Positions 17,918-56,195 of a DNA stretch of 64,000 nt are shown piece by piece. A model generated the notes under the pieces. It saw only the letters and a list, made by a program, of their open reading frames with translations. It did no database searches and was not told where the DNA came from. Each line of letters opens with the position of its first letter. Positions within the stretch are counted from its first letter, which is position 1. Source of the DNA: a virus; IMG/VR virus record IMGVR_UViG_3300042882_000899, positions 50,961-114,960 of that record, one strand, 5' to 3'. Made by a program: the position numbers and the translations under genes.

Positions 17918-18814
17918 ATGTCAAAAAATATAGGAAGAAGATCTTCCGCACAAGATAACTTTATTGGACCAAATCCAGTAACAAATGTTACAGCATCAGA
18001 CTACTTAAATGGAGCTAATAACCAAAGAGCTTTTAATGATGGTGCAATTAGCGTTTCATGGTCAGCTCCAGTAGGAGGTAATACTCCTACTGGCTACAAG
18101 GTATATGAAGCTGGTGTTCTAAAAGCAACAGTCCCATTTGGAACAAACACAGCTTTGATAACTGGGTTAGGTTCAAATACATCTCACACATATTCAGTTT
18201 CATCTTATGACTCCTATTTAGACAATTCATCAAATGCAGTTGCGGCAAATGCAGCAACTGCTACAACAGTTCCAGGCACACCAGCCAACCCAACAGCAAC
18301 AGCTGGTGTTGATTTAGACACAATTGCGTGGGTTGTTCCAGCAAATGGTGGAAAAGTCATTATCGATATTTATATTGAATCGAATGAGCCAACGCCAAAA
18401 AATAAAACTGTTACAACAGATGCCAATGGAAGCACAACTATTGCAAATGAAGCAAATACAGCACAGGCCTACAAGGTAAGAGCAAGAAATGCTAACGGTT
18501 CAGGAGCCTTTTCAGGATTCTCTAATACTGTTACTACTCAAGCACCTTCATTCTTTAGCCCACCGTTCTTCCCACCTGGCTTCTTTAGCCCACCGTTCTT
18601 CCCACCTGGCTTCTTTAGCCCACCGTTCTTCCCACCTGGCTTCTTTAGCCCACCGTTCTTCCCACCAGTATTCTTTAGCCCACCATTCTTTCCACCTGGC
18701 TTCTTTAGCCCACCGTTCTTCCCACCTGGCTTCTTTAGCCCACCGTTCTTCCCACCTGGCTTCTTTAGCCCACCAGGATTTGGTGGCGGAGGCTGGAACT
18801 TGAGAGCTTACTAA
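17918..18814 (+). CDS. Fibronectin type III domain protein with C-terminal Pro/Phe tandem repeat
   Basis: Two Fn3-like domains (VSWSAP..GG..PTGYKV; PANGG...YKVRARNANGSGAFS), then (FFSPPFFPPG)7 and FGGGGWNLRAY. Confidence 0.8.
   Translation: MSKNIGRRSSAQDNFIGPNPVTNVTASDYLNGANNQRAFNDGAISVSWSAPVGGNTPTGYKVYEAGVLKATVPFGTNTALITGLGSNTSHTYSVSSYDSYLDNSSNAVAANAATATTVPGTPANPTATAGVDLDTIAWVVPANGGKVIIDIYIESNEPTPKNKTVTTDANGSTTIANEANTAQAYKVRARNANGSGAFSGFSNTVTTQAPSFFSPPFFPPGFFSPPFFPPGFFSPPFFPPGFFSPPFFPPVFFSPPFFPPGFFSPPFFPPGFFSPPFFPPGFFSPPGFGGGGWNLRAY
18551..18774 (+). repeat. 30-nt tandem repeat x7.5 (TTCTTTAGCCCACCGTTCTTCCCACCTGGC)
   Basis: Read directly; near-identical units, no spacers. Confidence 0.95.
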
Positions 18815-18844: not shown

Positions 18845-19249
18845 ATGAGTAAAAATTATGCAATCTTGTCTTTAGGTAAAGTTATTGATAAGATAGAAGT
18901 AGAAAACGTAGAAGAAGATGCAAATAGAGTAGACAGATTTTCTGAAATATTCAACTCTAATTTCTTCTGCAAGGATATAACTGATCACAAGAAAGTAAAG
19001 CTAAACTCAATATGGGATGGCCAAGCATTTTCTGAATCGGATGAGGAAAGAAAAGAGGTTGCACCATATTCAGTAGCCTTTGTTTCTGACAATATAATCA
19101 AAGCAGTTGTTAGAGTGTATACAGCAAAAAGGTATAACCTCTATAAAGAAGCAGAGGTCAATGGGGTTTCTGCAATTGATGTTACCGACATGGATGTTAC
19201 AGCTATAAAAACTGGAATGTCATGGGACGGTACCTCTTTTACAGAATAG
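18845..19249 (+). CDS. Hypothetical protein with duplicated WDGxxF domain (possible fibre-assembly chaperone/adaptor)
   Basis: Two similar halves ending IWDGQAFSE and SWDGTSFTE. Confidence 0.6.
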   Translation: MSKNYAILSLGKVIDKIEVENVEEDANRVDRFSEIFNSNFFCKDITDHKKVKLNSIWDGQAFSESDEERKEVAPYSVAFVSDNIIKAVVRVYTAKRYNLYKEAEVNGVSAIDVTDMDVTAIKTGMSWDGTSFTE

Positions 19250-20651: not shown

Positions 20652-20675
20652 TATGAAATATGGTATATTATAGAT

Positions 20676-21422: not shown

Positions 21423-21425
21423 AAA

Positions 21426-28911: not shown

Positions 28912-29961
28912 ATGAGTAATGAACTATTAGCAAAAGCAGCTGAAGCAGGCACAACACTAACAGGTGGAATGACTGGCGCAGCAAACCCTACCGACGGAAT
29001 TCACGTAGGTTCCGAGGGTAAGGGAGGCTTGCTCAATCCTGAGCAATCCGCAAGATTCCTTGATTACATGTTCGATGCAACAGTAATCGGTAAAGTAGCA
29101 CGTACAGTTCGAATGAGAGCTGACACTACAGAGATTGATCGTATTGGCGTTGGCGAGAAGCTTATGAAGCTTGCAGCTGAAGCAGAGAACACTGGCTCAA
29201 ATGCAGCCGTACAGTTCTCAAAGATTTCTCTCACAACAAAGAAGCTTCGTCTAGATTGGGAGCTTTCAACTGAGTCTCTAGAAGACAACATTGAAGGTGC
29301 AGATCTAGAAGATCACATTGCAAGACTTATGGCGACACAAGCTGGTAACGACCTTGAGGACGTAGTTCTTAACGGTAACACAGCTCTAACTGGAGATGCA
29401 CTTTATAAGTCATTCGACGGTGTTGTTAAGATTGCAAAGGCAAACGGCCACGTAGTAGCTGGAGCGGGCGCAGTAATTTCCCGTGAAATCTTCAACAAGG
29501 CTCTTAAGGCAATGCCACGTAAGTACAAGCAGCGTCGTCCAGACCTACGCTTCCTTGCAGGCTCAAACCTAATTCAAGACTACTTGTACTCAACATCACA
29601 GAACATCCAGAACGTCAACCCACAAGATATTGCTTCAAGCATTATCCGTGGTGACCAGGGTGGTCTAGGTGGTCCAGCAGGGTATGTAGCTCCATTCGCA
29701 TTTGGTATTCCAATTGTTGAAGTTCCGCTACTAAAAGAAACTCAGACTGGTTCATATGCAACACCAACAGGAGATCATGGAGACGTTCACTTGACATTCC
29801 CTAATAACGTAGTTATTGGTATCAAGCGTGACGTAACTGTTTACCGATTCTTCTGGCCAAAGAAGGACTCAATCGAATATACAATGTATACTCGTGTTGG
29901 AACCCAAATTGAGCAGGCAGATGCATGGGTAGTCGTTAAAGACGTTAAGGTTGCTTCTTAA
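28912..29961 (+). CDS. Major capsid protein (HK97 fold)
   Basis: GGLLNPEQSARFLD, ESLEDNIEG, NGNT...FDG; position after protease; strongly biased codon usage; followed by a terminator. Confidence 0.92.
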   Translation: MSNELLAKAAEAGTTLTGGMTGAANPTDGIHVGSEGKGGLLNPEQSARFLDYMFDATVIGKVARTVRMRADTTEIDRIGVGEKLMKLAAEAENTGSNAAVQFSKISLTTKKLRLDWELSTESLEDNIEGADLEDHIARLMATQAGNDLEDVVLNGNTALTGDALYKSFDGVVKIAKANGHVVAGAGAVISREIFNKALKAMPRKYKQRRPDLRFLAGSNLIQDYLYSTSQNIQNVNPQDIASSIIRGDQGGLGGPAGYVAPFAFGIPIVEVPLLKETQTGSYATPTGDHGDVHLTFPNNVVIGIKRDVTVYRFFWPKKDSIEYTMYTRVGTQIEQADAWVVVKDVKVAS

Positions 29962-29983
29962 TTAAATAAGAAATAACTTGCTG

Positions 29984-30020
29984 GAAAGGCCCCCAATTAA
30001 TTTTGGGGGCTTTTCATTTT
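29984..30020 (+). terminator. Intrinsic terminator after MCP
   Basis: GCCCCCAA...TTGGGGGC stem followed by TTTTCATTTT. Confidence 0.85.
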
Positions 30021-43212: not shown

Positions 43213-43802
43213 TGAGCTTTCAAAATTTATCAAAAGGCTCAATACTTTACATAGAAGCACTAGACCCATTTGCAATTGATCCAGCAACAAACTCATTCAA
43301 TTATAAAGGCGAAACAGTTGTTGCACCTGGTAATACATATACTGCATCCACAGCAACTACAAATGGTTTATCGCTATCAAGCGCAAACTCTTTAAGATTT
43401 AGAAGACTTACAGAACACAACAGATTACCACTTTCTTTGAATACAGAAAGAATTGAGTCTAGCCAAAGAATGGCAAACGGAGCTCTTAGAAAATATTTTA
43501 TTGCAGATAAGCTAAATCTGAATGTCTCATGGGAAATGATACCTTCGTTTAGAAATGAAACAGTAGATGGAGCATGGGGAGCAGAAGACATAAAGAATTT
43601 TTATGAAAGTGCTGCAGGTCGTGGTCCTTTTAGAATTAAAATTAATCCAACAGTTTTTTCTACTTCTTTAGTTGAGCAGTCAGATGGGGCATTGGCAGAT
43701 GACTATACATATACTATGGCATTTACTTCATGCGATTTCTCTATTATAAAAAGAGGTCTGCAGCCATTTTGGAGCGTCAATATATCCCTGGAGCAGGTAT
43801 GA
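43212..43802 (+). CDS. Distal tail (Dit-like) protein
   Basis: Position after TMP; RMANGALRKY motif. Confidence 0.65.
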   Translation: MSFQNLSKGSILYIEALDPFAIDPATNSFNYKGETVVAPGNTYTASTATTNGLSLSSANSLRFRRLTEHNRLPLSLNTERIESSQRMANGALRKYFIADKLNLNVSWEMIPSFRNETVDGAWGAEDIKNFYESAAGRGPFRIKINPTVFSTSLVEQSDGALADDYTYTMAFTSCDFSIIKRGLQPFWSVNISLEQV

Positions 43803-46800
43803 TATCTGTATCTACTGCAACGAGTGATCTTTTAAAAAAGGGATACGCCTTATCAACTTCTGCGGGGGCGACGCTAGAATATAATCTTAACTCTATGGTA
43901 GAGCATATATCTGCAAAAACAAATCCAGAGAGTATATCTAATCCTTATTCAAATGCTTTTAAGAAGCTATTTCCAATAGACACGATATATAAACCATTTA
44001 GGCCACTATCCCCAGGTATTAAATATTTAGTTAATACAATAGGCAATACAGATACCCCTTCAAATTCTTTTGAAAGACCAAGAGATCTTGATATGGGAAC
44101 AAAGCCTAGACTTTATTATCCTGGGCCAGATATGGTTTACAAATACTGGCTTGCCCCTAAAAATACGAATATTGATATTTCTTTAGAGTATTTTTCAGAT
44201 GAAGCAAAAACTACTGCTAAATTAATACCATCTAATAAAATAGTAGCCAGATTTGAAACTAGCCACGACACACCGACATTTTGGACTATATCTGCTGTTA
44301 AGCAGGATAACACTTTAATAACAGTTTCTGGTACCTCATTAAATTCAAGCGGGGAAGCAGTAATACATTTTAATGGTACTTCATGGTCAACAACTGAGCC
44401 ATCTACATATACTACAACTCAGTATATTAAAAAGGTTTCATTGCAAGCAGTTAACTCAAATACTGGAAAGTTAATAGGTGTCATAGAGCTTGTTCCAAAA
44501 TGGGTTCTGCCTGTAGACTCAGACATAGTATCATTTTCTGTGAATAAAGAAACAACTGCAGATGATAGCTCAATTGTTCCAGTTGGCATAATTACAGCGA
44601 ACTACTTGACTCTTTCTCTTATGAAGCCTCATACAACATCAAGATCTATTGTTGAATACAACACAAAAAATGCAATAGATAATACAAAAATTTATCTTTT
44701 TAAGAACACAATAGTTAAGCCACATGTAAACATTGGAAATGGAACAACATCTGAAAAAGCCCCCCAAGGCATATTCTATGTAAATTCATGGAACCTATCA
44801 GAGTTTGGAGATGCAACAGTAGAGGCAACAGATGCAGCAAAGATATTGCAGGACACACTTTGCCCACAGCTGCTAGTTCAGGATGCTCCAGTAACTTCTA
44901 TTATTAAAAGAGTTTTAGACTCAGTTGGATTTTCTACTTATAAAATTAATGTTAAAAAGGTTGATGGTAAAGTTGAAGACGACTCAATCCCATCATTAGC
45001 ATACTGGTGGTCTGAAGGAGATAAGACTGTGTGGGATGTTCTGCAGGAACTCTGTAGAGATATTCAAATGAATGCTTTTGTCGATGAGTACAACGTGCTT
45101 AATTTTTACAGCAGAAACTTTATATATGACACATCGGCACAAACTAAATGGGTATTTACTAGTGAAGAAATAAAAACTGGATCAGTTGTAGATTATGTCC
45201 CAAACATAATAAGCCTATCTTCCAGAGAAATTTTTTCTGCTAACCAGGTTAGAGTCAGATATTCAACAGCATTTGTTTCAACTAATCAGCAATCATCTCA
45301 ACCACTATGGACGTCTCCTGAGTCTTTTTTGGGAGCTGGAGCGTTAGCCACAGACATAAATGATGACACTGAAATTTTTCAGCTAAATCCAAACACTATA
45401 AACTCTGCAAGACCAGATAAAGTTTTAGATCAGTTTAGTGGATATGTTTTAATTAATGGGGAAATTATTGAATATGATGGCTTATGGTATCAGTATGTTC
45501 CATTATCTGGAGGGGCTCCAAGCAGAGTTCTCATAAAGAATCAGTCAGACATTTGGAAGTATTCAGCTTTGTCAAAGCCAGGTTATAAAAACTTTTACCC
45601 AACTGGAGAATATAATATAAAAACAAGAGGCGCTCTATCTACTCCAAAATCAGATCATAAAAAAGCATTAGATTCCTATATAAATAAATCTGGAGAGTCT
45701 GACCCAAACAAGTTTAATCTTTATAACATCACTTTAGCTACACCAGATACCGCAAAGTTAAAAGCTGGCGTAGGACAGATATCTTCTCCTGCACAGCCAG
45801 CTGGAGAGACTGTACAAAAAAGCTTCCTTGCCATATCAAACTTAGATAAAGATAAAAAAACATTTGATATAGCAGTCAAATCATTTAATTCGATAGATAC
45901 GTCTAAAGCTTTTTTTGCATGCGGCACTAGAATGTTTTTTGATAGTCAGCTCAATACCCCAGAGCAGGTTGGCGGAGTTGGATTTTGCCTGGACTCTACT
46001 GGAAAGAATGGTTACTACCTTTTAGTTAGAACAACAGCGTTTGCTGGTTTACAAAAGGATATAATGATAGTTAAGGTTAGAAATAATAAACTTACTGTTT
46101 TAAAAGATAGCCAACAGACTTCTACAAAAACACTAGCTGGTATTTATGCTGGGAGCTCTTACAATATAGATGTTTTAGTAAAGAGAGAGTCGATGGCAGG
46201 TAACACATTTAAAAACACTATCACTGTATTTATTAATGGATTTAAAATAACCGCAATTGATGCTGGTTCTGATTCTGTAAATGAATATATACCACCTACA
46301 ACAATTACTAAAAATGTAGGTTTGCATTGCGGGCAAGGCGTATCCTATTTTGAATATGTTTATGCAAAAAGCATAGACGAGGCGGAGTATAAAGAAAAAA
46401 GTTTAAATAAGGCTTACCAATATAACGGAGTATATTCAGACGACACAGTATCAATGCTTTATGGAGATATTATTTATAATGATGGGAATACTACCGTAGA
46501 CCAGAGTGGTAGCATAATTGAGTTTGGAACTGTAGCTAGAGAGATTAGAAAAGTAAAAGATTCTTATGATGAAAATAGACCAGCGGTCCCAATTCAGTTT
46601 AGAACTTCTATGAATAAATATGCCACTATCTTGGATCAAAGACTACAGCCTTTTACTGCAGAAGCGTATGTACTAAACAATACATCAACCTCAGTTATAC
46701 TTCACGATAATAACTACACAAGCTTTTACGTCCTTGGAAACTCTATTCAAAGGTCTGGAATTATTGATTACGATACAGACCAATCAAATGATTCAGAGAA

Positions 46801-47071
46801 TAAGGAGTCTGTAATTTTTGACTCATCATGGATTCAGTCAGAAGAAGATGCAAAATCTTTGGCAGAGTGGATTAAATCAAACAGCTTAAACAAAGGCAGA
46901 TTTGTTGATTTGAGGGTATTTGGAAATCCAGTATTATCTGCTGGAGATATTGTAAGTATAAATTATCCTATTTTAGGCATGTCTCCTAGTGATACTAAGT
47001 ATATAATAACAAGGTGCTCTTTAGAGTATTCGGAAGGAGTAAGTACCTCAATTTCGTGTAGAGCTATCTAA
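43799..47071 (+). CDS. Tail tip / baseplate hub protein
   Basis: ATGA-coupled start at 43799; GIFYVNSW, WDVLQELC..FVDEY, WIQSEEDAKSLAEW...GNPVLSAGDIV. Confidence 0.75.
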   Translation: MISVSTATSDLLKKGYALSTSAGATLEYNLNSMVEHISAKTNPESISNPYSNAFKKLFPIDTIYKPFRPLSPGIKYLVNTIGNTDTPSNSFERPRDLDMGTKPRLYYPGPDMVYKYWLAPKNTNIDISLEYFSDEAKTTAKLIPSNKIVARFETSHDTPTFWTISAVKQDNTLITVSGTSLNSSGEAVIHFNGTSWSTTEPSTYTTTQYIKKVSLQAVNSNTGKLIGVIELVPKWVLPVDSDIVSFSVNKETTADDSSIVPVGIITANYLTLSLMKPHTTSRSIVEYNTKNAIDNTKIYLFKNTIVKPHVNIGNGTTSEKAPQGIFYVNSWNLSEFGDATVEATDAAKILQDTLCPQLLVQDAPVTSIIKRVLDSVGFSTYKINVKKVDGKVEDDSIPSLAYWWSEGDKTVWDVLQELCRDIQMNAFVDEYNVLNFYSRNFIYDTSAQTKWVFTSEEIKTGSVVDYVPNIISLSSREIFSANQVRVRYSTAFVSTNQQSSQPLWTSPESFLGAGALATDINDDTEIFQLNPNTINSARPDKVLDQFSGYVLINGEIIEYDGLWYQYVPLSGGAPSRVLIKNQSDIWKYSALSKPGYKNFYPTGEYNIKTRGALSTPKSDHKKALDSYINKSGESDPNKFNLYNITLATPDTAKLKAGVGQISSPAQPAGETVQKSFLAISNLDKDKKTFDIAVKSFNSIDTSKAFFACGTRMFFDSQLNTPEQVGGVGFCLDSTGKNGYYLLVRTTAFAGLQKDIMIVKVRNNKLTVLKDSQQTSTKTLAGIYAGSSYNIDVLVKRESMAGNTFKNTITVFINGFKITAIDAGSDSVNEYIPPTTITKNVGLHCGQGVSYFEYVYAKSIDEAEYKEKSLNKAYQYNGVYSDDTVSMLYGDIIYNDGNTTVDQSGSIIEFGTVAREIRKVKDSYDENRPAVPIQFRTSMNKYATILDQRLQPFTAEAYVLNNTSTSVILHDNNYTSFYVLGNSIQRSGIIDYDTDQSNDSENKESVIFDSSWIQSEEDAKSLAEWIKSNSLNKGRFVDLRVFGNPVLSAGDIVSINYPILGMSPSDTKYIITRCSLEYSEGVSTSISCRAI

Positions 47072-47094
47072 TAACGTAATGGTATAATAAATAA

Positions 47095-47436
47095 ATGGGA
47101 ATTGAAGTAGGAAAGATACCAGTCATATTTGATGACGACCCACGCCTTGCCGCAGTCTGGAAGGGTGAGTCTGGTTTTGTTAGAACATCATCTGGGTCCT
47201 TTCCATTTTCACAATCTTCCTCTGGCGAGAATGACGGTGGAGACGATCCAGGAAATCCTAGCGGCAAAAGACCTCAGCTAAGTGATATTGTTTTAAAAGG
47301 ATTTGAGCTATATGAGGATGCTTCTGGAATGCAAAGAGCAAAAGCAAAATTTAGAATTTATAATTCAAGCGAAGAGCAAATAGATGGATTCCTTTACGCT
47401 ATAACTATTTCGGATACACAGGGAGGAAGATCTTGA
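47095..47436 (+). CDS. Minor tail protein (hypothetical)
   Basis: ORF track; ATG 6 nt after TGGTATAAT. Confidence 0.65.
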   Translation: MGIEVGKIPVIFDDDPRLAAVWKGESGFVRTSSGSFPFSQSSSGENDGGDDPGNPSGKRPQLSDIVLKGFELYEDASGMQRAKAKFRIYNSSEEQIDGFLYAITISDTQGGRS

Positions 47437-48293
47437 TAACTAAATTTGGTAAAAGATTCCTTTCTAATTTTGTTGCAGGCAATTCTTCATTTTCTTCAAA
47501 AGAAATGGCTCTTGGAATTGCAACAGAAACAGAGTATCCAGTGTTAGATACAAACTCAAGACTTGGATTTGAATTTTATAGAGTTCCAATTAGACAGGGC
47601 GGAATAGATATAGACTCTTCTGTTTCACCAGTAAAGTATACAATTATATACTCAGCTACAATTCCTACTAATATAGCAGGTAAGATAAATGAGATTGGAA
47701 TATACTCTGGACAATCATATTCTAGAAATCTTTATGAAAGCAAATTTATATCTAATTTTGAATTGCCATATGAGTGGAGCCCAGAGCCAACATTAGATCA
47801 ATCTGATTATAGAGTTGGAGATAGCTCTTTAATATTTACATCAAATGGGACGGCAGCAAGAGAGTATACATATTCTCTTAATAGCATAGACATATCTGGA
47901 TACAATCCATCTGACACACTATCATTTTCATACAAGGCAAATGACGCAAACCTATCTTCATTGAAAGTTAGGATGTATAGTTCAAATACTGATTATATAG
48001 AGTTCACATTTACTGGACACTCTGTTGGCAATAACATTAGATCAGTTAATATGTCCACAGGAGTTTCATCTGGTACATTTAACCCACAAAGTGTTGTTAA
48101 GCTGGGTATACTCGTTACACCAACTTCTGCACAAACATCAGTGTCTATGGACGGATTAAGAATTAATGATGAAGACACGTTTGATCCAGAGTATGGATTG
48201 ATTGCAAGATCGGTACTTGATTCAACAATGATTAAGGTAATTGGTAGAGAAGCAGCTATTGAATTTAAACTAGACCTATCGTTTGGAGACTAA
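47433..48293 (+). CDS. Minor tail / baseplate protein
   Basis: MITKFGKRF...ALGI...INEIGIY pattern of fibre-attachment proteins. Confidence 0.65.
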   Translation: MITKFGKRFLSNFVAGNSSFSSKEMALGIATETEYPVLDTNSRLGFEFYRVPIRQGGIDIDSSVSPVKYTIIYSATIPTNIAGKINEIGIYSGQSYSRNLYESKFISNFELPYEWSPEPTLDQSDYRVGDSSLIFTSNGTAAREYTYSLNSIDISGYNPSDTLSFSYKANDANLSSLKVRMYSSNTDYIEFTFTGHSVGNNIRSVNMSTGVSSGTFNPQSVVKLGILVTPTSAQTSVSMDGLRINDEDTFDPEYGLIARSVLDSTMIKVIGREAAIEFKLDLSFGD

Positions 48294-48294
48294 A

Positions 48295-51200
48295 ATGTCT
48301 GAACGGTATGAAGATCTAGGAATTACTCAGAGTCAAGACGGAGACTACTGGGACGTAGTCATACCAGACCTAGATTGCAGTACCAACTACGCATTGCAAG
48401 CTGCCTGGATTTTTAGCGATAAATCTTTAGGTACTAGCGAATTTTCTGATAGATTTAATTTCACAACCCCAGGACCATCTAGAGTTTGTCCAGCAAACGT
48501 TGCGGCAACTTGGGATGCAAAAGCTGGATTAAATGTAACGTGGCAAAAAAATGATACAAGGGTTAAGAACTATGTAATTAACTTACAAGCAGGTGGATAC
48601 ACTAGATCCTACTTAGTACCAGCTACTTCAGCACAAACAAACTACTCTTGGGTTCTAACTAGAGAAAATAATATATTTCAGTTTGGTGGAACATTTAGAA
48701 CATCATTTACTTCTTTTTCGATTCAAAGTGTTTACGGAGACGGCAGCTCAGATCAGTGCCCAGTAACAGTAGAGCCATTTGTAGATCTTGTATGTACCCA
48801 TGCGATACTAGACGCATCATGGAATGTTGTTAGTCAAAATAATGGAATATTGGTTTCTTGGCAGGATAGCGGAACGGCTTATGGAACTTACCGTGAAACT
48901 AGAGTTTATGTCTCTGAAAACAACAATCCGTATTCATGGGAACTTAAGTATACTGGAATAGGACCCGCATCCATCACACTTGATACGCTGGCTACAGTGT
49001 ATGTTAAGCTAAACCATCTTTCATATTCAGATTGTGAGTCTTTAAGCTCAAGCGTAAAAGAGGCAAAAGCATTTGACCCATTTGAGTTTGACGATACTCC
49101 TCCAGACCCAATTGTAAATCCTTCTGTTGCATGGAGTGGCTCAGACCTAATAGTTTCATTTTCAATGCCAGCTACAAACATACCGACATACGTTAAGTTT
49201 CATTTAACTTCATTAGGACAAACTGAGTATTTTGAAAAAACAATTTCTGGAGTGTCTGCAGGAGCTTCAACATCCGTAAAGATTAGTAGAGAAGAAATGA
49301 TAGAAGGATTTGGCTTTAGTCCATTATCATTTACTGGGGGGTACGCAACAGATTTAGATATTTACAGAAATGAAAATTTTACTCAAGTAAGCATATCTGG
49401 AATATCAGCTATAGTAAAACCAAATCTGCTACAGGGAATTACAACTACTATATCCGTAACTGGTTTATCTAATGGATATGTTGTCTCATCAAACTTAAAC
49501 GCAAAAGCTACTGGAATAAAAGTTTATCAAAGCTCTACGCAAAACGGAACCTACACCCTTGTAGCATCGTCCAACTCAAGCCCAGTTATTGTTTATGATG
49601 AAACAAATGCTGGCAACACTGTTTGGGTACAAGCTCAATGGACTTCAGAAAATGGCAACGCAGATATGTCAGTACCTGCTTCTGTTTTAATAATAGATGT
49701 TGCCTCACTATCCTTAATTGAAAATCCAGTTAAAATAAAAACAGATGGCTCTATATTTGCTGGAACCTTAGATTCAAACGATGAACCAGTTTTAACTGGC
49801 GCAAGAATGCTTATAAACAAACGAGGTTTATTTTTATACGATTCAAATGATACAAATGGAACAAATCCAACAACTCAAATAATTGGTGAAGAGAATGGAA
49901 TCACTGCAACATTTATTACAAAGAAAGCTAAAATAGCTAATTGGATAATATCTGAGAACAAGTTTGAGAATGTTTTAACTTCATCTACAAATACCTTTAC
50001 TGGAATTTCACCATCTGGAACCTATGCATTTTGGGCTGGAGCTGGAGTAGCTGGCGGATACTCACTAAATGCAAACGAAGATGCAAAATTTTCTGTAACA
50101 AAAGAAGGTGCTGTAACTGCAAGGAATATAAAGGTTCTTGGCGGACAGATATCTGTAGGGTCTAAATTTAGTGTAGACACACAAGGAAAAGTTGTAGCAA
50201 CAGATGCGGACCTATCTGGAGAAATTAAAGCAGCATCTGGAATACTTGGAAATTTAGCAATTGGCGGAACCATAAATGGAGTATCATATAGTGGACAACT
50301 TCTCATTGATGCTGGAAATGGATCTAAGGTAGAAATTGGAAAGTATACAAGTGGTGAAATAAACAATCCTTTAGTAGGATTTTCTGGAATACAAATTACT
50401 GGAGCAAACCAAAAGTACGTACAGCTTGATCCAGTTAGTGGAATTATTGCAAATAAAGGAACTATAGCTGGATGGACAATTGATAATACTTCAATAAACA
50501 AAGCTGGTAATGTCGGTCTGTTTGCAACAACAACCCCCACAGATGTTGCAATTTGGGCTGGAGGATCTAGAACAGTTAGTCCTAATTTTTCTGTTACCTA
50601 TGCTGGAAAAATGGTTGCAAGGGATGCCGTTCTTCGTGGAATGGTTCAGGCAGGAGAGGGCGGATTTGGAATATTAGAAGTTGATTCTACAACAGCAACT
50701 GGGTATAAAGTTTCTAACGGATGGACAATTGATTCTGCAAAAATAAAATCTACAAATACTTCTTCTCAAATAACTCTTGACGGACTTCAGGGTTCTATAG
50801 TTGGTGGAAACATTGTTGGCTCAAATCACTATTTTATGAGTCCATCTGCATGGACAACTGCTTATCCTGGGGAAGGAAGCGGTAACCCAGGAAATGTTGA
50901 CTATATATCTTCATCTGGTAATTTTAGACTTGCTAATGGAAAGCTAACATATGATGGAGATTCATTTAAGGTCCAAACAGATTTAGTTGCATCTAATATA
51001 TTTTTAGGTACGGCAGAAAGTTTTTCAAATGATTATATATTGGGAAAAAATACTACCATAGGTGGAGTTACAAAAAATGTTGGAAGCTTTAGCCTAGCAG
51101 GCGGAATGATGACTTATTCAAGTAATATTTTTCAAATAAATCAATCGAGAAACCCTAATTTTAAAATTTATTTAAATGTTGGTAATAATTTTGATGGCAC

Positions 51201-51381
51201 ATTTGGAGATCCAACAGTAGTTCAAGATGTTGAAACTGGAGAGCTTACAAGAGGAAGGTCTTTTTTTTACGGAGGAAATAATTACCCAGGAAGTACTACG
51301 GATAGAATACAGCATGCAGATGGAGATCAAGGCGGAGGCGCCTTCGTTAAGGGCGACATATGGTTAAGTAGGAAAGCATAA
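48295..51381 (+). CDS. Tail fibre / minor tail protein with Fn3-like domains
   Basis: Beta-rich N-terminal half; repeated IAGWTI and AKFSVT..G motifs; ends KGDIWL; ATG after GGAG. Confidence 0.7.
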   Translation: MSERYEDLGITQSQDGDYWDVVIPDLDCSTNYALQAAWIFSDKSLGTSEFSDRFNFTTPGPSRVCPANVAATWDAKAGLNVTWQKNDTRVKNYVINLQAGGYTRSYLVPATSAQTNYSWVLTRENNIFQFGGTFRTSFTSFSIQSVYGDGSSDQCPVTVEPFVDLVCTHAILDASWNVVSQNNGILVSWQDSGTAYGTYRETRVYVSENNNPYSWELKYTGIGPASITLDTLATVYVKLNHLSYSDCESLSSSVKEAKAFDPFEFDDTPPDPIVNPSVAWSGSDLIVSFSMPATNIPTYVKFHLTSLGQTEYFEKTISGVSAGASTSVKISREEMIEGFGFSPLSFTGGYATDLDIYRNENFTQVSISGISAIVKPNLLQGITTTISVTGLSNGYVVSSNLNAKATGIKVYQSSTQNGTYTLVASSNSSPVIVYDETNAGNTVWVQAQWTSENGNADMSVPASVLIIDVASLSLIENPVKIKTDGSIFAGTLDSNDEPVLTGARMLINKRGLFLYDSNDTNGTNPTTQIIGEENGITATFITKKAKIANWIISENKFENVLTSSTNTFTGISPSGTYAFWAGAGVAGGYSLNANEDAKFSVTKEGAVTARNIKVLGGQISVGSKFSVDTQGKVVATDADLSGEIKAASGILGNLAIGGTINGVSYSGQLLIDAGNGSKVEIGKYTSGEINNPLVGFSGIQITGANQKYVQLDPVSGIIANKGTIAGWTIDNTSINKAGNVGLFATTTPTDVAIWAGGSRTVSPNFSVTYAGKMVARDAVLRGMVQAGEGGFGILEVDSTTATGYKVSNGWTIDSAKIKSTNTSSQITLDGLQGSIVGGNIVGSNHYFMSPSAWTTAYPGEGSGNPGNVDYISSSGNFRLANGKLTYDGDSFKVQTDLVASNIFLGTAESFSNDYILGKNTTIGGVTKNVGSFSLAGGMMTYSSNIFQINQSRNPNFKIYLNVGNNFDGTFGDPTVVQDVETGELTRGRSFFYGGNNYPGSTTDRIQHADGDQGGGAFVKGDIWLSRKA

Positions 51382-54300
51382 ATGAGCTGGTGGAGAAAGT
51401 CAAATTTAGATGATGCTGGCAATCTTGATGGCTGGATAAAAATAAGAAGCATATGGAGAAAGACTAATATCGGTGATGCTGGCTCAACAGATGGCTGGCT
51501 AAAAATAAAAAGTGCCTGGAGATTTCAAGGGCTAAATGATTTAGGTGCTGGCATATGGTATAAAATTTTTGGATCTGAATCTCCTTATCCAAAAGAAAAC
51601 CCAAAACTTATATTTGTTTCTACGGATTCAAGCACATCTGAAACAGAATGTACTCAGCAAGACAAAATGTATGTTACAAGAGGCAAATGGTATGAAGAAC
51701 CAATATCATTTTTAATTAAAATACAAAAGTCTATAATTACAAATTGGGATGCACCAACAACATTAATTAGCCAAGAGCTTGAGTATTTAGAGTATAAGGA
51801 TTCAGATTATTTAGATGAAGTTCCTAAACTAGTTGCAGATAGACCAACAATAACACTAGATGACATTAAAAATAAAATAGGCTTTAGGGCACAAGTTGCA
51901 GCTGGTCAAGATGCTAATCCAACAGCAGATGACTACCTACTTGCAACCTCATGGTATCCAAGTGCTACAGGAATTTTCCCAAGACTTAATTTTGGGTTTA
52001 CTACATACAGCACTGGTGATCAAATAGTTGAAGATGAAACTCTAAGTATGCCAGAGTTTAAAATATTTGGATTTAAGTGGCAGTATTTAACATCATCTGC
52101 TGCATCATATCCAAATGGACAATACTTCCCGTCATCTAGAACTGATGAGTTTATTGGAAAGCAAATAATAGAGTTAACTGATTTTTATGGAACAAGAATT
52201 GGCGCATTGCAAAACGTAGATGTGTTGCCAAACCATCAGTATTCTGGAACCATATCTTACACCCAAGCTATGATAGATTCCAATGAAGATTACATAATAA
52301 ACGTCTATGCATTTGCAAAAGATTATTATTATAATGCTAGCAATTCTTTAGAGTCCCACTTAAATGATATGAATGAGACTCAAAGGATTGCGTCATATGT
52401 GTTTGTACCACCAAGAGAAATAGAAGACCCAGAAATTACTATATCTAATAGAACAAAAAGTTCTGTGGATATAAATTGGTATTCCCCAGATGCAGAAAGG
52501 TATAAAGTTGAATTAATAGATTCAATTACAGCAGATTCTTTGGGGGGATACCCAAAACTTTCAACTGAAGATGTTTCTGCCAGCCCTTTCGGTTTAACTG
52601 AAAATAGACTATATACTGTTTCAGTAACCGCACTTGCTGGAGAAAATGATAAATACAAAAGCGAGAGAGTCTCTAAAAGTTTTAGAACATTAAAAACTGG
52701 AATAGCCGCAGAGTTAGGAGTTCCTTACGATATAACTTCAACTGGATATAAGGTAAATATAGAAAATTGGAGTACAATAAGTTCATTTGATATAACCGTT
52801 TCCGCAACATTTGGGACAGCGTCAAGGTCTTCTGACGTTATATCTGTTACCAATGTTCCAGCAAATTCTAATTCATGTTTAACTGCTACAACTTCTAAAA
52901 TTGATAATGTAGATTTAACAGCCGTTTCATATGATTTTGCAGAGTCTTCTCCTGTATGTATAGTTATCGGAGGAACTTGGTATTGCTTAAATTTTGTTCC
53001 TGGCGGAGGGTGTTCTAAATCTATAGAACCTTATGACAAAACTTTAAGCGGTTCTGGATTTTCTATTAATTGTTCACAAACAGATCAATGCTGCCCATCT
53101 GTAGTTTTAGAGCCAAAAGTTTACACAGAATGGGTAATTGGATTGTGTACAGTTGCACCCGCAGATCCTCAAAGACCAAGAACTAGAACATGGACTCAGA
53201 TACAAAAAACAACTTCTCAAAATTGCGTTGTTACTAACGTAGAGCTATCTGGATCAGAAACAGAATATATTGATTGTTGTGTTCCAACATCCACACTTGG
53301 GGCTAAGACTTATGGGACACCAAATGATTGGGGTACATGCAATTTAAATACTGGACAAATCGGAAGAACGGTTCCGTGGACAGCAACAAGAACTAATTTT
53401 ACTAGAGACTGTACTACAACTACGACAGAAGAAAGCGGGCTTGAAGTTCAGTATAAAGATTGCTGCACTGCCAGCTCATCTTTAGGAACTAAAACTTATA
53501 GCGACTGGTCTCCATATGGCTCATGTATTCAAGGAGAGAGAGCGAGCTATAGAACTTGGACAGCTATTCAAACAAACAATACAATTAATTGTACTACTAC
53601 AACTAACGAAGTTAATGGAACAGAGTATAGGTACACCTCATGTTGTACTGCTGGCTGCACACTAGGAACAAAAACTTATGGAGATTGGTCTGCTTATGGA
53701 TCATGTGTTCAGGGGGAGAGAAGAAGACAAAGATCCTGGACAGCAATAAATACGTGTATAGATTCAAGCTGCAATATAATTTCTCAAAATGAATTAAATA
53801 GCGTTGAGTATGAGTATACATCATGCTGCGTACAGTCCTGTACTACTGGAGCTAAGACATACGGAGCCTGGACAGCATACGGTAGCTGTATACAAGGTCA
53901 ACGTGCCAGATCAAGAAGCTGGACAGCAACTGAATCATGTTTTACGACAAGTTGCACTAATACAACTGAAACAATTAGCGGTACCGATTTTGAGTATACT
54001 TCATGCTGTGTCCCAAGCAGCACTACTGGCACGAAAACTTACAGTGCTTGGTCTGCATACGGAAACTGTATCCAAGGAGAAAGGGCTCGATATAGAACTT
54101 GGACAGCCATACAAACCAATATTGATTCTAGTTGCAATAGCACAACCACAGAAGTTAACGGAACAGAATATGAGTACACTTCATGTTGTACTGCTGGTTG
54201 TACTACTGGTACAAAAGATTATAGCGCATGGGGATCATGGGGGTCTTGCAGTCAAGGGGAGCAAGCTAGAATTAGAACATGGACTGCGATTGAGACATGT

Positions 54301-55080
54301 ATAAACTCAAGTTGCAATACTTTGTCTACTAGGGAAGTCAGTGGATTTGAAATAGAGTATAGAGGCTGTACCACCATCAATACGATTAACACCATCAATA
54401 CGATTAACACCATCAATACGATTAACACCATCAATACGATTAACACCATCAATACAGTTAATACCGTTAACACAGTTAATACCGTTAACACGGTTAATAC
54501 CGTTAACACAGTTAATACCGTTAACACAGTTAATACCGTTAACACAGTTAATACCGTTAACACAGTTAATACCGTTAACACAGTTAATACGGGAGGTGGA
54601 GGCTGCCACGTATTTGGAACAAGAATCCAGATGGCAGACGGATCATTTAAGAATATTGAAGATTTATATATTGGTGATGAGGTCATGGCAGCTGACATAC
54701 CAGGCTTGGGAGACAAAGAAACCGACATAAACAATTTATCATTATGGTCATCTGAAGATATTTCTGGAACATCTAAAACTACAGCTAATGTTACAAATGT
54801 TGTTATTAGATCTTATGGACAGCACTATGTGATAAATGATACAATTAAAATAACTTACGAGCATATTATTCCAGCAAAACAAAATAATTTATGGAAGTTT
54901 ATTAAAGTTGAAGATTTAAATGTTGGGGACGTAATTGTAGATGAAAACTTGAGTAATGTAATAGTTGTCTCAAAAATTTTAGTTGAAGAGACAGTTGAAA
55001 CAGTTTCAATTGATATTGAAAATAAAGACATATATTTTGTTGAGGGCTTAATGGCTCACAACAACAGTGAGAAAGCTTAA
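51382..55080 (+). CDS. Fibre-like protein with Fn3, 7 thrombospondin-type-1-like Cys repeats, (T-I/V-N)24 and C-terminal Hint domain
   Basis: N-terminal W..IKS.WR repeats; Fn3-like region; WSAYGSCxQGERxRxRTW repeats; GGGG-CHVFGTRIQMADG...IEDLYIGD...YFVEGLMAHN. Confidence 0.85.
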   Translation: MSWWRKSNLDDAGNLDGWIKIRSIWRKTNIGDAGSTDGWLKIKSAWRFQGLNDLGAGIWYKIFGSESPYPKENPKLIFVSTDSSTSETECTQQDKMYVTRGKWYEEPISFLIKIQKSIITNWDAPTTLISQELEYLEYKDSDYLDEVPKLVADRPTITLDDIKNKIGFRAQVAAGQDANPTADDYLLATSWYPSATGIFPRLNFGFTTYSTGDQIVEDETLSMPEFKIFGFKWQYLTSSAASYPNGQYFPSSRTDEFIGKQIIELTDFYGTRIGALQNVDVLPNHQYSGTISYTQAMIDSNEDYIINVYAFAKDYYYNASNSLESHLNDMNETQRIASYVFVPPREIEDPEITISNRTKSSVDINWYSPDAERYKVELIDSITADSLGGYPKLSTEDVSASPFGLTENRLYTVSVTALAGENDKYKSERVSKSFRTLKTGIAAELGVPYDITSTGYKVNIENWSTISSFDITVSATFGTASRSSDVISVTNVPANSNSCLTATTSKIDNVDLTAVSYDFAESSPVCIVIGGTWYCLNFVPGGGCSKSIEPYDKTLSGSGFSINCSQTDQCCPSVVLEPKVYTEWVIGLCTVAPADPQRPRTRTWTQIQKTTSQNCVVTNVELSGSETEYIDCCVPTSTLGAKTYGTPNDWGTCNLNTGQIGRTVPWTATRTNFTRDCTTTTTEESGLEVQYKDCCTASSSLGTKTYSDWSPYGSCIQGERASYRTWTAIQTNNTINCTTTTNEVNGTEYRYTSCCTAGCTLGTKTYGDWSAYGSCVQGERRRQRSWTAINTCIDSSCNIISQNELNSVEYEYTSCCVQSCTTGAKTYGAWTAYGSCIQGQRARSRSWTATESCFTTSCTNTTETISGTDFEYTSCCVPSSTTGTKTYSAWSAYGNCIQGERARYRTWTAIQTNIDSSCNSTTTEVNGTEYEYTSCCTAGCTTGTKDYSAWGSWGSCSQGEQARIRTWTAIETCINSSCNTLSTREVSGFEIEYRGCTTINTINTINTINTINTINTINTINTINTVNTVNTVNTVNTVNTVNTVNTVNTVNTVNTVNTVNTVNTVNTVNTGGGGCHVFGTRIQMADGSFKNIEDLYIGDEVMAADIPGLGDKETDINNLSLWSSEDISGTSKTTANVTNVVIRSYGQHYVINDTIKITYEHIIPAKQNNLWKFIKVEDLNVGDVIVDENLSNVIVVSKILVEETVETVSIDIENKDIYFVEGLMAHNNSEKA
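53089..54369 (+). repeat. Seven 60-62-aa Cys-rich (TSP1-like) repeats
   Basis: Units begin at CC dipeptides at 53089, 53275, 53461, 53641, 53824, 54004, 54184. Confidence 0.85.
54373..54588 (+). repeat. 9-nt tandem repeats encoding (TIN)9(TVN)15
   Basis: 18-nt units ACCATCAATACGATTAAC, then ACAGTTAATACCGTTAAC. Confidence 0.95.
54604..55062 (+). other. Hint (intein-like, BIL-type) autoprocessing domain, 153 aa
   Basis: Cys1 in block A (CHVFGT), block B TYEH, terminal His-Asn; no endonuclease; only NSEKA follows. Confidence 0.85.
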
Positions 55081-55091
55081 GGAGAATTTAA

Positions 55092-55673
55092 TTGAAAGTA
55101 GAAGACCTAGGAAATAAAATATTTATGTATAAAGATGTTGTCGGTAGCAGCTTAGACGTCCTTTCCGAGCTTAATAAAATATTTTCTGAATACAATCAAG
55201 ATTATAAGGAATCAACAATGAATAATAAAGATTATGACGATTCACTGCGTTCGTGCACTGTTTTTTCATTGTATGTAGGTTTACAGGATGGTCCTGAATA
55301 CTCTAATGCAAAGAGGGTACTTAATAAAAAAATAGATATAGCGCTATCTAAATGCATACTTCATTTTGTAAAATCAACTGATATTAAAATAAAAGAAAGA
55401 GAGCCGTGGGAAATATTGAGGTACGAGAAAACCCAGAAAGTAACATGGCACTGTGACGACGGAGAAGTTCACCCATCTAAAGTATCTTTTGTTTATTACA
55501 TCAACGACGACTATGAAGGCGGAGAAATTCAATTTAAAGACAAGGCTTATAGTATACCCATAAAGCCAAAAAAAGACAGCTTGATAGTATTCCCATCAAG
55601 CTTAGAATATATTCATAGAGTTTTACCAGTATCAAACGGAGTGAAATATTCAATAATATCATTTGGAAAATAG
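55092..55673 (+). CDS. Prolyl 4-hydroxylase-like 2OG-Fe(II) oxygenase
   Basis: LRYEKTQKVTWHCD, YINDDYEGGEIQF, HRVLPVSNGVKYS. Confidence 0.9.
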   Translation: MKVEDLGNKIFMYKDVVGSSLDVLSELNKIFSEYNQDYKESTMNNKDYDDSLRSCTVFSLYVGLQDGPEYSNAKRVLNKKIDIALSKCILHFVKSTDIKIKEREPWEILRYEKTQKVTWHCDDGEVHPSKVSFVYYINDDYEGGEIQFKDKAYSIPIKPKKDSLIVFPSSLEYIHRVLPVSNGVKYSIISFGK

Positions 55674-55732
55674 ACTTTATGATAGACAGAATTTATAATA
55701 AATGATATGATTTCATACATTAAGGAGATACT

Positions 55733-55969
55733 ATGAATAAGTCTGAAATGGGTGGAAGCACCTATATGGTTTTGGTAAATGGAGAATACGCTGGTTGGTT
55801 TAATATTGCTGGTCCAGGAACTGATCTTCTTAGGGCTGGTCTTTCTAGCAATCCCACTTTAGTTGATATGGCAGATGTAGATATAGATTTGCCAAACCTT
55901 CCAAAAGCGGGCGCAGACTATTACTGGGATGGCGAATCTTTTGAATTGAGGTCTTCTGATGGCCAGTAA
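55733..55969 (+). CDS. Small WDGxxF-domain protein (similar to the halves of the 18845 protein)
   Basis: LVNGE...LSSNPTLVD...YYWDGESF. Confidence 0.65.
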   Translation: MNKSEMGGSTYMVLVNGEYAGWFNIAGPGTDLLRAGLSSNPTLVDMADVDIDLPNLPKAGADYYWDGESFELRSSDGQ

Positions 55970-56195
55970 GTGGGATCAGGTTAAAAAGCTGGTAAATTCA
56001 AATGAAGTAAAGCCATGGGATTTTTTAAACCCAAATACGGAATACTCTTCAGAAGAAGAGTCTAATTCTAGATACTCGTTGTGTAAGGCATGCCCTAAAT
56101 TTAATGACGGGGTTAAAACCTGTCAAGAATGCGGTTGCTTTATGCCAGCAAAAACAAAGCTTAAGGGCGCAACTTGCCCTATAGGCAAATGGTAA
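55959..56195 (+). CDS. Small Cys-rich protein (DUF6171-like)
   Basis: R..LCKACP...CQECGCFMPAKTKL..ATCPIGKW. Confidence 0.7.
   Translation: MASKWDQVKKLVNSNEVKPWDFLNPNTEYSSEEESNSRYSLCKACPKFNDGVKTCQECGCFMPAKTKLKGATCPIGKW

Follow-up and report, generated by a model that had tools for sequence, protein, structure and literature searches.

A repeat, a glycine run and an intein-like domain at the end of a phage tail-fibre gene: a candidate portable module with an adjoining oxygenase gene

Why should a phage tail fibre end in a low-complexity repeat and an autoprocessing domain, and be followed directly by an oxygenase gene? The question is raised by a gene in the 64,000-nucleotide stretch of DNA analysed here (the window), whose source is an uncultured freshwater actinobacterial siphophage; signs of an actinobacterial host are WhiB in the genome, PASTA partners and Streptomyces-phage-like tail proteins. 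The gene (51382..55080, + strand) is the final one of the tail module and encodes a distal tail-fibre precursor of 1232 amino acids. Minor tail protein genes lie upstream (43730-51381), the product of 43730-47071 matching the phrog_10359 minor tail protein and minor tail proteins of Streptomyces phages, and fibre homologues with 62–87% identity are found in the related viral contigs L021-L030. Residues 351-430 (52432..52671, +) form an Fn3-like domain whose Pfam fn3 match (E 8.4e-5) is, at 23.1 bits, slightly below the 25-bit cut-off. Further along, the translation contains about eight Cys/Trp-rich modules of about 60 residues each (53059..54366, +) with the pattern CC..C..G.K.Y..W..[YW]G.C.QGE..R.R.WTA, underlain by DNA direct repeats at 180-nt spacing. 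These modules matched no Pfam family, TSP_1 included, and the fibre had no Pfam match to Peptidase_S74.

The initial annotation had read the C-terminus of this 1232-residue product as (TIN)9(TVN)15-T-GGGG followed by a Hint domain, and translation and repeat analysis agree. The tract occupies residues 998-1069 (54373..54588, +) and its DNA consists of two 18-bp arrays detected by TRF (54372-54455 with 100% matches and 54454-54590 with 98%), each unit made up of two synonymous triplets. This tripeptide repeat is slippage-prone; its length ranges from 11 to 31 units among relatives, and the fibres of L006 and L010 differ solely in 8 TIN units. The junction that follows, Thr-Gly-Gly-Gly-Gly (residues 1070-1074; 54589..54603, +), is the predicted end of the N-extein, with Gly1074-Cys1075 as the scissile bond predicted from the sequence. 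Cys1 is preceded by GGGG or GGGGG in most relatives and in 26 of 79 terminal-Hint representatives, while LGGG, KGK, GPG, AGL or GG are found at other junctions, and GGGG is thus not universal.

The 158 residues from Cys1075 onwards comprise the Hint domain (residues 1075-1227; 54604..55062, +), ending in His-Asn, and a five-residue tail. Pfam matches to this domain fall below threshold. Its presence after GGGG, as initially annotated, is nevertheless confirmed by a profile match to the bacterial intein-like (BIL) domain 2lwy (E 1.7e-5), by an AF2 model with a pLDDT of 91.4 and by Foldseek, which returned 2lwy as best match (E 7e-9) followed by the BUBL BIL2 structures 6y75/6tmm (E about 1e-7). 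BIL domains ranked above inteins and Hedgehog, with 1AT0 at rank 14, and by profile and fold the domain is closest to the A-type BIL domains. In alignments the catalytic set is complete (Cys1075, Thr1158-x-x-His1161, Asp1216 and His1226-Asn1227); across the aligned Hint domains Cys1 is invariant and TxxH, Asp142 and His-Asn are conserved. The domain probably cuts itself out of the fibre, and what had been used as a mere end marker is probably the core of the mechanism.

After translation, the BIL domain would form a thioester at Gly1074-Cys1075, Asn1227 would cyclise and the domain would leave; self-excision by this route is quite likely. The mature fibre would then end in (TVN)15-T-GGGG, either free or rejoined to the five-residue C-extein Asn-Ser-Glu-Lys-Ala (55063..55077, +). 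Rejoining could proceed through the alpha-amine of the tail, the route of A-type BIL splicing, or through Lys1231, in the manner of Tetrahymena BUBL BIL2. The +1 residue of this tail is a non-nucleophile and Lys1231 is present; among HN-type tails, lysine occurs in 74 of 81 against 12 ± 2.7 expected, and Cys, Ser or Thr at +1 in only 5. Ligation rather than hydrolysis as the main outcome is conceivable, and we suggest it with some reserve. It is improbable that the Gly4-Cys thioester is instead resolved in trans, by an amine or hydroxyl of another molecule (an adjacent fibre chain, a further virion protein or part of the host envelope, for instance), so that the tip becomes covalently anchored or cross-linked; the oxygenase might then make the acceptor hydroxyl. 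A reaction in cis is suggested by the lysine that nearly every such protein has in its own short tail, a free virion is unlikely to store a Hint thioester because such thioesters do not last long, and the acceptor is hypothetical. Against these objections stand the use by Hedgehog of a hydroxyl on the same thioester, the resemblance of the glycine run ahead of the cysteine to the C-terminus of a ubiquitin-like protein, and the place among the best structural matches of BUBL BIL2, an ATP-independent domain that joins a C-terminal Gly-Gly to lysines (PMC8616854).

Eleven nucleotides downstream of the fibre gene lies the gene for a P4H-like 2OG/Fe(II) oxygenase of 193 amino acids (55092..55673, +; PF13640, E 2.7e-15; phrog_61), placed there correctly by the initial annotation. 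The residues His120, Asp122, His175 and Lys185 are present. The start codon is TTG and the Shine-Dalgarno sequence AAGGAG overlaps the stop codon of the fibre gene; one base is common to both genes in L002 and L004. Judged from the sequence, the oxygenase gene is translationally coupled to the fibre gene. Matches to solved P4H-type structures are weak, the best being PiuC (E 0.04), then PHD2 and LH3. Proline is the usual PF13640 substrate. The TIN/TVN tract is free of proline, and hydroxylation of side chains in the repeat tail by this enzyme, for which the initial annotation named Asn, Ile or Val as possible targets, is put forward tentatively, at slightly less than an even chance.

The module recurs in related viral contigs, where a short-period repeat, a glycine run and a BIL domain, followed directly by an oxygenase gene, were found in at least nine lineages; one more family carries a glycosyltransferase in that position instead. 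It sits on unrelated N-terminal proteins and therefore behaves as a mobile module. In L026/P0047, a PASTA protein, the N-terminus is unrelated while Hint and oxygenase are 74% and 67% identical to those of the window; the corresponding values in L050, again with an unrelated N-terminus, are 39% and 44%. Three lineages were recovered by a search seeded with the Hint domain alone, and each of them has an oxygenase gene immediately downstream; in L016/L017 and L066 the oxygenase lies within three genes. Oxygenase orthologues come after all T-I-[DN] repeat-BIL modules. The oxygenases of T-I-[DN] cassettes score 168–302 bits and those of PPVYSN/YYNPYSNPPP cassettes 46 bits, despite the higher BIL identity of the latter; by these scores oxygenase similarity follows repeat type more than BIL similarity. 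The expected enrichment of repeat proteins beside oxygenases was also recovered, a repeat ORF lying just upstream in 5 of 15 array families against 7.6% expected (p 0.004). The compared lineages are related phages, and the conserved adjacency is therefore partly shared ancestry.

A rival account would see in the BIL domain no more than a removable cap, a self-cleaving aid to folding or assembly that is functionally analogous to the intramolecular chaperone at the C-terminus of endosialidase and of T5 fibres, with the repeat as a slippage-prone spacer and the oxygenase hitch-hiking in a hypervariable locus while acting on a host or metabolic substrate. About twelve PF13640 genes are present in the genome, many distant from repeat proteins and several within regions for replication or packaging, which in this phage weakens adjacency taken by itself as evidence. 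In the largest family of oxygenase arrays (46 arrays) no repeat protein lies close by, and the absence of proline from the tract fits the same account. So do the Hint-less repeat tails, which exist at both loci discussed here (locus 1 of the window, L014 and L015) and make the BIL domain dispensable for some fibres. The adjacent oxygenase is missing from the P0070 family (L118-L120; repeat-GGGG-BIL) and likewise from repeat-free terminal-Hint fibre proteins (L121-L125, L133). We nevertheless regard this account as unlikely, given that the oxygenase gene keeps its place directly after the module when the N-terminal protein is a different, unrelated one, that its clade follows repeat type and that it appears translationally coupled to the fibre; moreover, the conserved His-Asn and lysine tail would be superfluous for plain N-terminal cleavage. 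The same slot is occupied in relatives by protein glycosyltransferases (PF11397 in L118, GT61 in L050), which fits the repeat tail as a substrate for modification.

The apposition of a repetitive tract rich in T, V, I and N to a tailoring oxygenase also recalls proteusin-type peptides, in which Val and Asn residues are hydroxylated, and the repeat could be imagined as the core of a RiPP-like precursor, which the oxygenase would modify and the Hint domain, as protease, would set free as a small product. This is very improbable: the tract ends a 1000-residue structural fibre conserved with tail genes, its N-terminal side has neither cleavage site nor protease, and the module also occurs fused to wall-binding PASTA domains.

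A resemblance in organisation to a second locus of the window (17.9-23.7 kb, locus 1) had been proposed. It holds in that both repeat tracts end in GGGG, and fails in that locus 1 has neither a Hint domain nor a Cys-rich gene. Its Fn3 protein (17918..18814, +) ends in (FFSPPFFPPG)7 and the terminal ...GFGGGGWNLRAY, and is the same kind of tail as that of the fibre in a Hint-less form. In L017 the homologous protein shares this N-terminus and carries both an FFAPPG repeat and a Hint domain; the two loci are therefore of one kind. Downstream lie a 134-residue protein with two halves each ending in WDGxxF (18845..19249, +) and a block conserved in L018-L020 (19262..23729), assigned by Pfam to five PF13640 oxygenases (19262-19957, 20676-21422, 21426-22271, 22268-23047 and 23037-23729, all +) and one DUF6065 gene (19926-20651, +).

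The WDGESF protein of 78 residues (55733..55969, +) is present as first described, but the role then given to it, as part of a general cassette in which adjacent oxygenases modify a variable low-complexity tail, must be withdrawn. The recurrent link between such tails and adjacent P4H-like oxygenases stands; the WDGxxF family is lineage-restricted, found only in close relatives and independent of Hint and oxygenase, being present in L014 and L015 where both are absent. The supposed likeness to the halves of 18845-19249 does not extend beyond some 13 residues round WDGxxF (BLASTP E 0.038), profile comparison of the two proteins was negative to weak (hhalign probability 8–22%) and jackhmmer found no link between them; the halves of the 134-residue protein match each other over 24 residues (hhalign E 1.9e-4, probability 48%). 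The 78-residue protein matched nothing in Pfam or PHROG, and all of its 26 homologues share at least 63% identity. Its AF2 model (pLDDT 79) had no significant match in fold comparison, and weak leads pointed to tail-fibre-assembly proteins. This lineage-specific protein, encoded downstream of the fibre, may have a role in assembly, for which the chances are nearly even. The CxxC/CxxCGC protein reported after it is indeed there (78 residues; 55959..56195, +), with the pattern CxxC...CxxCGC...CPxGKW, and is a DUF6171 protein (PF19668, 28.7 bits, narrowly above the 27-bit cut-off; phrog_13558) with viral Atlas clusters. Zinc-ribbon-like, it often accompanies the repeat-BIL module, also in distant contexts (L016/17, L032-38, L047, L066 and L120).

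On balance we lean towards reading the fibre C-terminus as a portable module of tripeptide repeat, Gly4 hinge and A-type BIL domain with a coupled oxygenase, in which self-excision would be followed by tailoring. The module anatomy, the Hint fold, the intact catalytic residues, the unrelated N-termini and the oxygenase adjacent in most lineages found are observed. A gene of collagen-hydroxylase type travels with the module between unrelated proteins, so that chemical tailoring of fibre tips by phages is possible; if all steps are true, the tip would be chemically tailored and variable in length.

No paper on a fibre-terminal repeat-Gly-BIL module coupled to a 2OG oxygenase was found in the literature, and known systems resemble it in part. 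Endosialidase and T5 pb1 carry a C-terminal intramolecular chaperone (Peptidase_S74) that removes itself after its job, and are thus alike in having a self-removing C-terminal domain on a phage fibre; the fold is unrelated, and a Ser-Lys dyad takes the place of Hint thioester and Asn cyclisation. Hedgehog/Hog (1AT0) likewise has the Hint fold, at the C-terminus of its precursor and with a Gly/Cys scissile junction, whereas the phage domain retains His-Asn and a C-extein, has no sterol-recognition region and is less similar to Hedgehog than to BILs. The prolyl 4-hydroxylase of chlorovirus PBCV-1 acts on the virus's own proline-rich repeats. It too is a virus-encoded P4H-family oxygenase paired with short-period repeats, and the Pro/Phe tract of locus 1 fits this comparison well; the proline-free TIN/TVN tract, the weak P4H structure match, the bacterial host and the attached BIL domain set the phage system apart. 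PF11397 is the family of the Skp1 Hyp-GlcNAc transferase, in a pathway that includes the Skp1 prolyl hydroxylase. The relatives with a PF11397 GlcNAc transferase or GT61 beside the repeat-BIL protein recall this pairing and by analogy suggest that a protein tail may be hydroxylated and then glycosylated, unlike the window cassette, among whose neighbouring genes no glycosyltransferase was seen.

The BUBL BIL2 domain of Tetrahymena thermophila forms an isopeptide with a Lys epsilon-amine without ATP (PMC8616854). The BUBL1-locus BIL2 (6Y75/6TMM) is the second-best fold match and has a glycine-ended N-extein, and the phage tails nearly always contain lysine. Identity is about 21%, the phage N-extein is a repeat fibre and not a ubiquitin-like domain, and its C-extein is a five-residue peptide where that of BUBL BIL2 is a folded domain; the lysine route in the phage is suggested by analogy. 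The best match in both sequence profile and fold is the A-type BIL of Clostridium thermocellum (2LWY), with which the phage domain has in common a mini-Hint of about 150 residues, Cys1, TxxH, a C-terminal His-Asn without a C+1 nucleophile, and occurrence in variable proteins of the surface or the extracellular space instead of in conserved enzymes. What distinguishes the phage domain from the A-type BIL is its position at the extreme fibre C-terminus, with five residues after it and a repeat and glycine run before it, and its genetic coupling to a 2OG oxygenase.

The open reading frame at 51382-55080, which closes the tail module, encodes a 1232-aa fibre whose residues 998-1069 form the tract (TIN)9(TVN)15, followed by Thr-Gly4 and, directly after this, by a 158-residue Hint domain that opens at Cys1075. 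At the DNA level the tract is composed of 18-bp units of two synonymous triplets, which are 98-100% identical among themselves. Its length ranges from 11 to 31 units among relatives, and the fibres of two related loci, L006 and L010, differ solely by eight TIN units; since the lengths differ and this gap amounts to whole units, the tract changes by slippage, with many lengths tolerated. Antisense and out-of-frame ORFs over the repeat, such as 54252-54734 on the minus strand, were dismissed as artefacts of the repeat. At its N-terminus (51391-51512) the fibre opens with a 21-aa unit (W.RK.N..DAGN.DGW.KI.S.WR) that occurs twice, and the body (53059-54366) holds about eight Cys/Trp-rich modules of about 60 aa each, in which the pattern W..W..C.QGE..R.R.W recalls thrombospondin type-1 repeats. 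These modules had no Pfam match as TSP1-type repeats, and that identity was not adopted.

Pfam Hint models matched the C-terminal domain at sub-threshold scores only. A profile built from its relatives matched the bacterial intein-like (BIL) domain 2lwy of C. thermocellum with an E-value of 1.7e-5, and this structure was also the best Foldseek match (E 7.3e-9, TM 0.71/0.81) of an AF2 model of the domain (pLDDT 91.4, pTM 0.86). BIL2 of the Tetrahymena BUBL1 locus was likewise among the best matches, with inteins and Hedgehog behind; 55 PDB matches had E-values of 1e-3 or lower, and those listed were Hint proteins throughout. The catalytic set is complete, comprising Cys1075, Thr1158-x-x-His1161, Asp1216 and His1226-Asn1227. 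The Cys1 nucleophile is kept in all 15 aligned domains and absent from one distant relative, L066. In block B (Thr1158-Tyr-Glu-His1161) the threonine, position 84 of the Hint alignment A5, is at least 90% conserved there and replaced in the L016/L017/L053 type, while His-Asn is invariant in A5 and is followed in the fibre by Asn. The distant cassette member that lacks Cys1 (L066:2-1270) has a (GAF/SAF)n repeat before its Hint-like domain and is separated from the oxygenase by a DUF6171 gene.

Only five residues, NSEKA, follow the domain, and their first, the C+1 position, is Asn. As this is not a nucleophile, the fibre domain counts as an A-type BIL rather than an intein. A canonical intein, which would be inserted at a conserved site of a housekeeping protein, is further contradicted by the terminal position with a five-residue C-extein and by a length of only 158 aa, with no homing endonuclease. 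A pre-toxin HINT of polymorphic toxins (PF07591) would have a toxin domain behind it; this reading was rejected, as nothing other than NSEKA follows and the PF07591 match reaches 17.1 bits against a cut-off of 27.7. A Hedgehog/Hog Hint would lack the C-terminal His-Asn and have an adduct-recognition region behind its Hint core, whereas here His-Asn is present and only five residues stand beyond it. BIL domains have been described for about twenty years, and no clear biological role is known for them.

The initial annotation had proposed a general cassette in which a variable repeat tail and a Hint domain are accompanied by an oxygenase, a WDGxxF protein and a Cys-rich protein. To survey such neighbourhoods, loci were seeded by the WDG protein (L002-L017), by the Hint profile (L021-L038) and by the oxygenase (L039-L117), and annotated with our own HMMs. 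Among these loci, each distinct Hint protein carries a short-period repeat immediately before the domain; the junction is Gly-rich, in most cases GGGG(G)/C[HF]V[FV]GT, and the next gene is an oxygenase, save for two intervening genes in L016 and L017 and one in L066. The repeats are of many types (TIN/TVN/TID, PPVVxNTD, PPVY[SD]N, YYNPYSNPPPYDNT, IDT, ATPP, FFAPPG and PTPPDFT), and the three features were present in all three lineages recovered with nothing but the Hint profile, namely window-type fibres, L026 and L032-L038. The N-terminal parts are unrelated, being the 1232-aa fibre, PASTA proteins or other proteins of 300-500 aa; Hint and oxygenase are 74% and 67% identical to those of the window in L026, and 39% and 44% in L050. 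This similarity behind unrelated N-termini indicates that repeat, Gly run, BIL and oxygenase move as a unit. In one 1532-aa fibre (L047:385-4983) a PFFPYFPPFF tract and a TIN tract both precede GGGGG-Cys-BIL, so repeat types can be combined in one tail.

Oxygenase adjacency was checked prospectively in more distant families through the relatives of the Hint proteins P0070 and P0120. The P0070 family (L118-L120) has the layout PASTA-(FSVFSF)n-GGGG-BIL without an adjacent oxygenase, and the relatives found with P0120 have neither repeat nor adjacent oxygenase. Nor does an oxygenase stand next to the terminal-Hint proteins that lack a repeat (L121-L125, L133). Seen from the oxygenase side, 5 of 15 families of oxygenase arrays have a repeat ORF at most three genes upstream, where 7.6% would be expected (p 0.004); no repeat lies beside the largest family, with 46 arrays. 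The sequence features noted at the fibre locus are real, and the proposed cassette holds for the most part as regards repeat, Gly run, BIL and oxygenase, which recur together on unrelated N-termini; the WDG protein is not a part of it. The proposed mechanism is plausible. Our literature searches found no paper on Hint/BIL domains at phage fibre ends and none on phage P4H-fibre pairs.

The fibre locus and that at 17.9-23.7 kb had been taken for two copies of one module. At the latter, an Fn3 protein (17918-18814) ending in (FFSPPFFPPG)7 ...GFGGGGWNLRAY precedes a 134-aa protein, five PF13640 oxygenases and a DUF6065 gene; with neither a Hint domain nor a Cys-rich gene, this locus is, in the present genome, a variant that lacks Hint rather than a further copy. 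A homologue of its Fn3 protein in a more distant phage (L017) has an FFAPPG repeat, then SFKGK/C, a Hint domain and an oxygenase. In L026 a PASTA-repeat-Hint protein and an oxygenase lie just upstream of fibre genes resembling window 12926-14938 (MATVNKNFRIKNG...), which is the fibre-gene neighbourhood of the 17.9-23.7 kb locus as well. By the Hint-bearing Fn3 homologue and the placement in L026, the two loci are separate sites of a single kind of module. The gene of a 587-aa Laminin_G_3/concanavalin-like protein (23769-25532), which is kept in L018-L020, separates the oxygenase block from the portal-side genes.

Behind the oxygenase gene of the fibre locus come the 78-aa WDGESF protein (55733-55969; WDG78) and then the Cys-rich DUF6171 protein (55959-56195). 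The WDG78 family comprises 26 proteins with identities of 63% or more, all from close relatives of the phage, and it is present behind fibres that have neither Hint nor oxygenase (L014, L015). We read WDG78 as a lineage-specific fibre accessory and not as a cassette part. Nor did the presumed homology to the 134-aa WDGxxF protein of the other locus (18845-19249; WDG134) hold in profile comparison, as hhalign gave probabilities of 8%, 4% and 22% over 12-13 columns and jackhmmer kept the families apart, though the profiles are shallow (Neff ~1.8) and may miss a distant homology. By BLASTP, hhalign and jackhmmer alike, alignment of the two was confined to the motif. Neither protein had a match in Pfam or PHROGs, even at an E-value of 5, and fold searches with the WDG78 model (pLDDT 79) in PDB (Foldseek), BFVD and VIA-wide gave nothing significant. 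The best BFVD E-value was 0.23, with several tail-fibre-assembly proteins at 1.7-5, the Atlas feature score was 0.80, and VIA Z reached at most 2.8. Weak as they are, such leads recur and hint at a tail fibre assembly protein (Caudo_TAP or Caudo_TAP_N). The Cys-rich protein matched DUF6171 (PF19668) at 28.7 bits against a cut-off of 27, the L032 copy at 33.8 bits; its Atlas clusters are viral (score 0.95), and it recurs beside cassettes in distant contexts.

Several lines indicate an actinobacterial host. A WhiB-family protein is encoded elsewhere in the phage genome (G000:C1:23939-24112), outside the window, and in relatives the module is fused to PASTA wall-binding domains; together these make such a host likely on sequence grounds. 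Minor tail proteins of Streptomyces siphophages are about 25% identical to the tail genes of the phage, which include a minor tail protein (phrog_10359) at 43730-47071 and two more large tail proteins between it and the fibre gene. The GC content is 35-40%. Scanning prokaryote genomes with the Hint profile gave no relative, and hence no prophage and no direct host link, and megablast of the region against GenBank phages gave no match. The window comprises bases 50961-114960 of the 114,960-bp IMG/VR record, the completeness of which is estimated at 96%. A further short-period repeat, (AFLAG)n, is seen on the apparent minus strand at L136:755-1018 (genome ~29755-30018), outside the window.

Among the "auxiliary" genes of aquatic phages that still lack an explanation, those for P4H-like 2OG oxygenases rank with the commonest, and this 115-kb phage alone has about 12 PF13640 genes. 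Those in the window are at 5210-5398 (minus), 19262-23729 and 55092-55673 and the others lie outside it; several are in the replication and packaging regions, including three of 337-362 aa in the former and one just before a terminase-like 596-aa gene. The product of 55092-55673 matches PF13640 at 57.5 bits (cut-off 27), and its iron triad and 2OG-binding residue (His120, Asp122, His175 and Lys185) are conserved in orthologues. It is too distant from solved structures, with weak matches only (PiuC, PHD2, LH3), for a substrate to be inferred from them. Its gene is translationally coupled to that of the fibre, the AAGGAG ribosome-binding site overlapping the fibre stop codon. An orthologue of the enzyme is present in every T-I-[DN] cassette (168-302 bits), L050 included despite a BIL identity of only 39%; in PPVYSN/YYNPYSNPPP cassettes the BILs are 41-48% identical and the oxygenase is distant (46 bits). 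Oxygenase similarity may follow repeat type more than BIL similarity, which, with a single discordance behind it, is only suggestive. Other enzymes found beside a repeat-BIL gene are a PF11397 GlcNAc transferase (L118:5915-6868), a GT61-cupin fusion (L050:3309-4922) and an NAD-dependent sugar epimerase (L016:10708-11664). PF11397 is the family of the Skp1 hydroxyproline GlcNAc transferase, and these neighbours in relatives hint that the tail is glycosylated. From the translational coupling, the tracking of repeat type and the glycosyltransferases in the same slot, we infer that the oxygenase may act on the repeat. The TIN/TVN tract has no Pro, which counts against such action; prolines do occur in other parts of the fibre and in relatives' repeats. 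In its fixed pairing with P4H-like oxygenases, the defined repeat tail is a candidate substrate open to direct tests, and the pairing suggests that at least some phage 2OG oxygenases decorate virions instead of reprogramming the metabolism of the host. Fibre tips that vary in length and carry post-translational modifications would add a new axis to variation in host range.

The BIL domain itself belongs to a large family. An HMM search over 1.84 billion representative proteins gave 10,675 representatives matching the Hint HMM at E-values of 1e-3 or lower. Among the best 150 of these the domain was C-terminal in 79, often after a Pro/aromatic low-complexity tract, and 26 of the 79 had a run of at least three Gly at the junction. 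Many metagenomic proteins (P0048, P0057, P0089, P0114 and others) have two to five tandem BIL domains with HN-K-(G)n-C junctions; in P0048 two BIL domains stand at the N-terminus of a fibre-like protein. Tails were analysed in the 81 terminal His-Asn BIL proteins among P0047-P0197. The median tail after His-Asn was 7 residues, Lys was found in 74 of the 81 tails (12 +/- 2.7 expected), and C+1 was Cys, Ser or Thr in only five, Lys being commonest at this position (17 cases). Such a large family of terminal BILs with Lys tails puts BIL chemistry within reach of a simple expression experiment.

With Cys1/TxxH as well as His-Asn intact, the BIL domain of the fibre would be expected to react at each end. 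The likeliest outcome would be self-excision, leaving ...(TVN)15-T-GGGG, an end that could possibly be re-joined to NSEKA via Lys1231 or the alpha-amine of NSEKA. Hint-less homologues terminate in a Gly run and 4-6 residues (GGGGWNLRAY, GGGGQIPV), which is the layout expected of the spliced product. We consider it possible, though rather doubtful, that the BIL is a built-in ATP-free ligase that passes a Gly4-Cys thioester to the conserved tail Lys, or to a Lys or hydroxyl in trans, giving an isopeptide-capped or cross-linked tip, with hydroxylation of the repeat by a dedicated, repeat-matched oxygenase in addition. If true, a bacterial virus particle would combine conjugation chemistry of the ubiquitin-like kind with collagen-like tailoring, and the many orphan phage 2OG oxygenases would gain a concrete substrate class. 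Ligation to Lys is known from BIL2 of BUBL, which joins the C-terminus of its N-extein to lysine as an isopeptide without ATP (PMC8616854). With BUBL BIL2 among the best fold matches of the fibre BIL, the Lys of NSEKA is a possible analogous acceptor.
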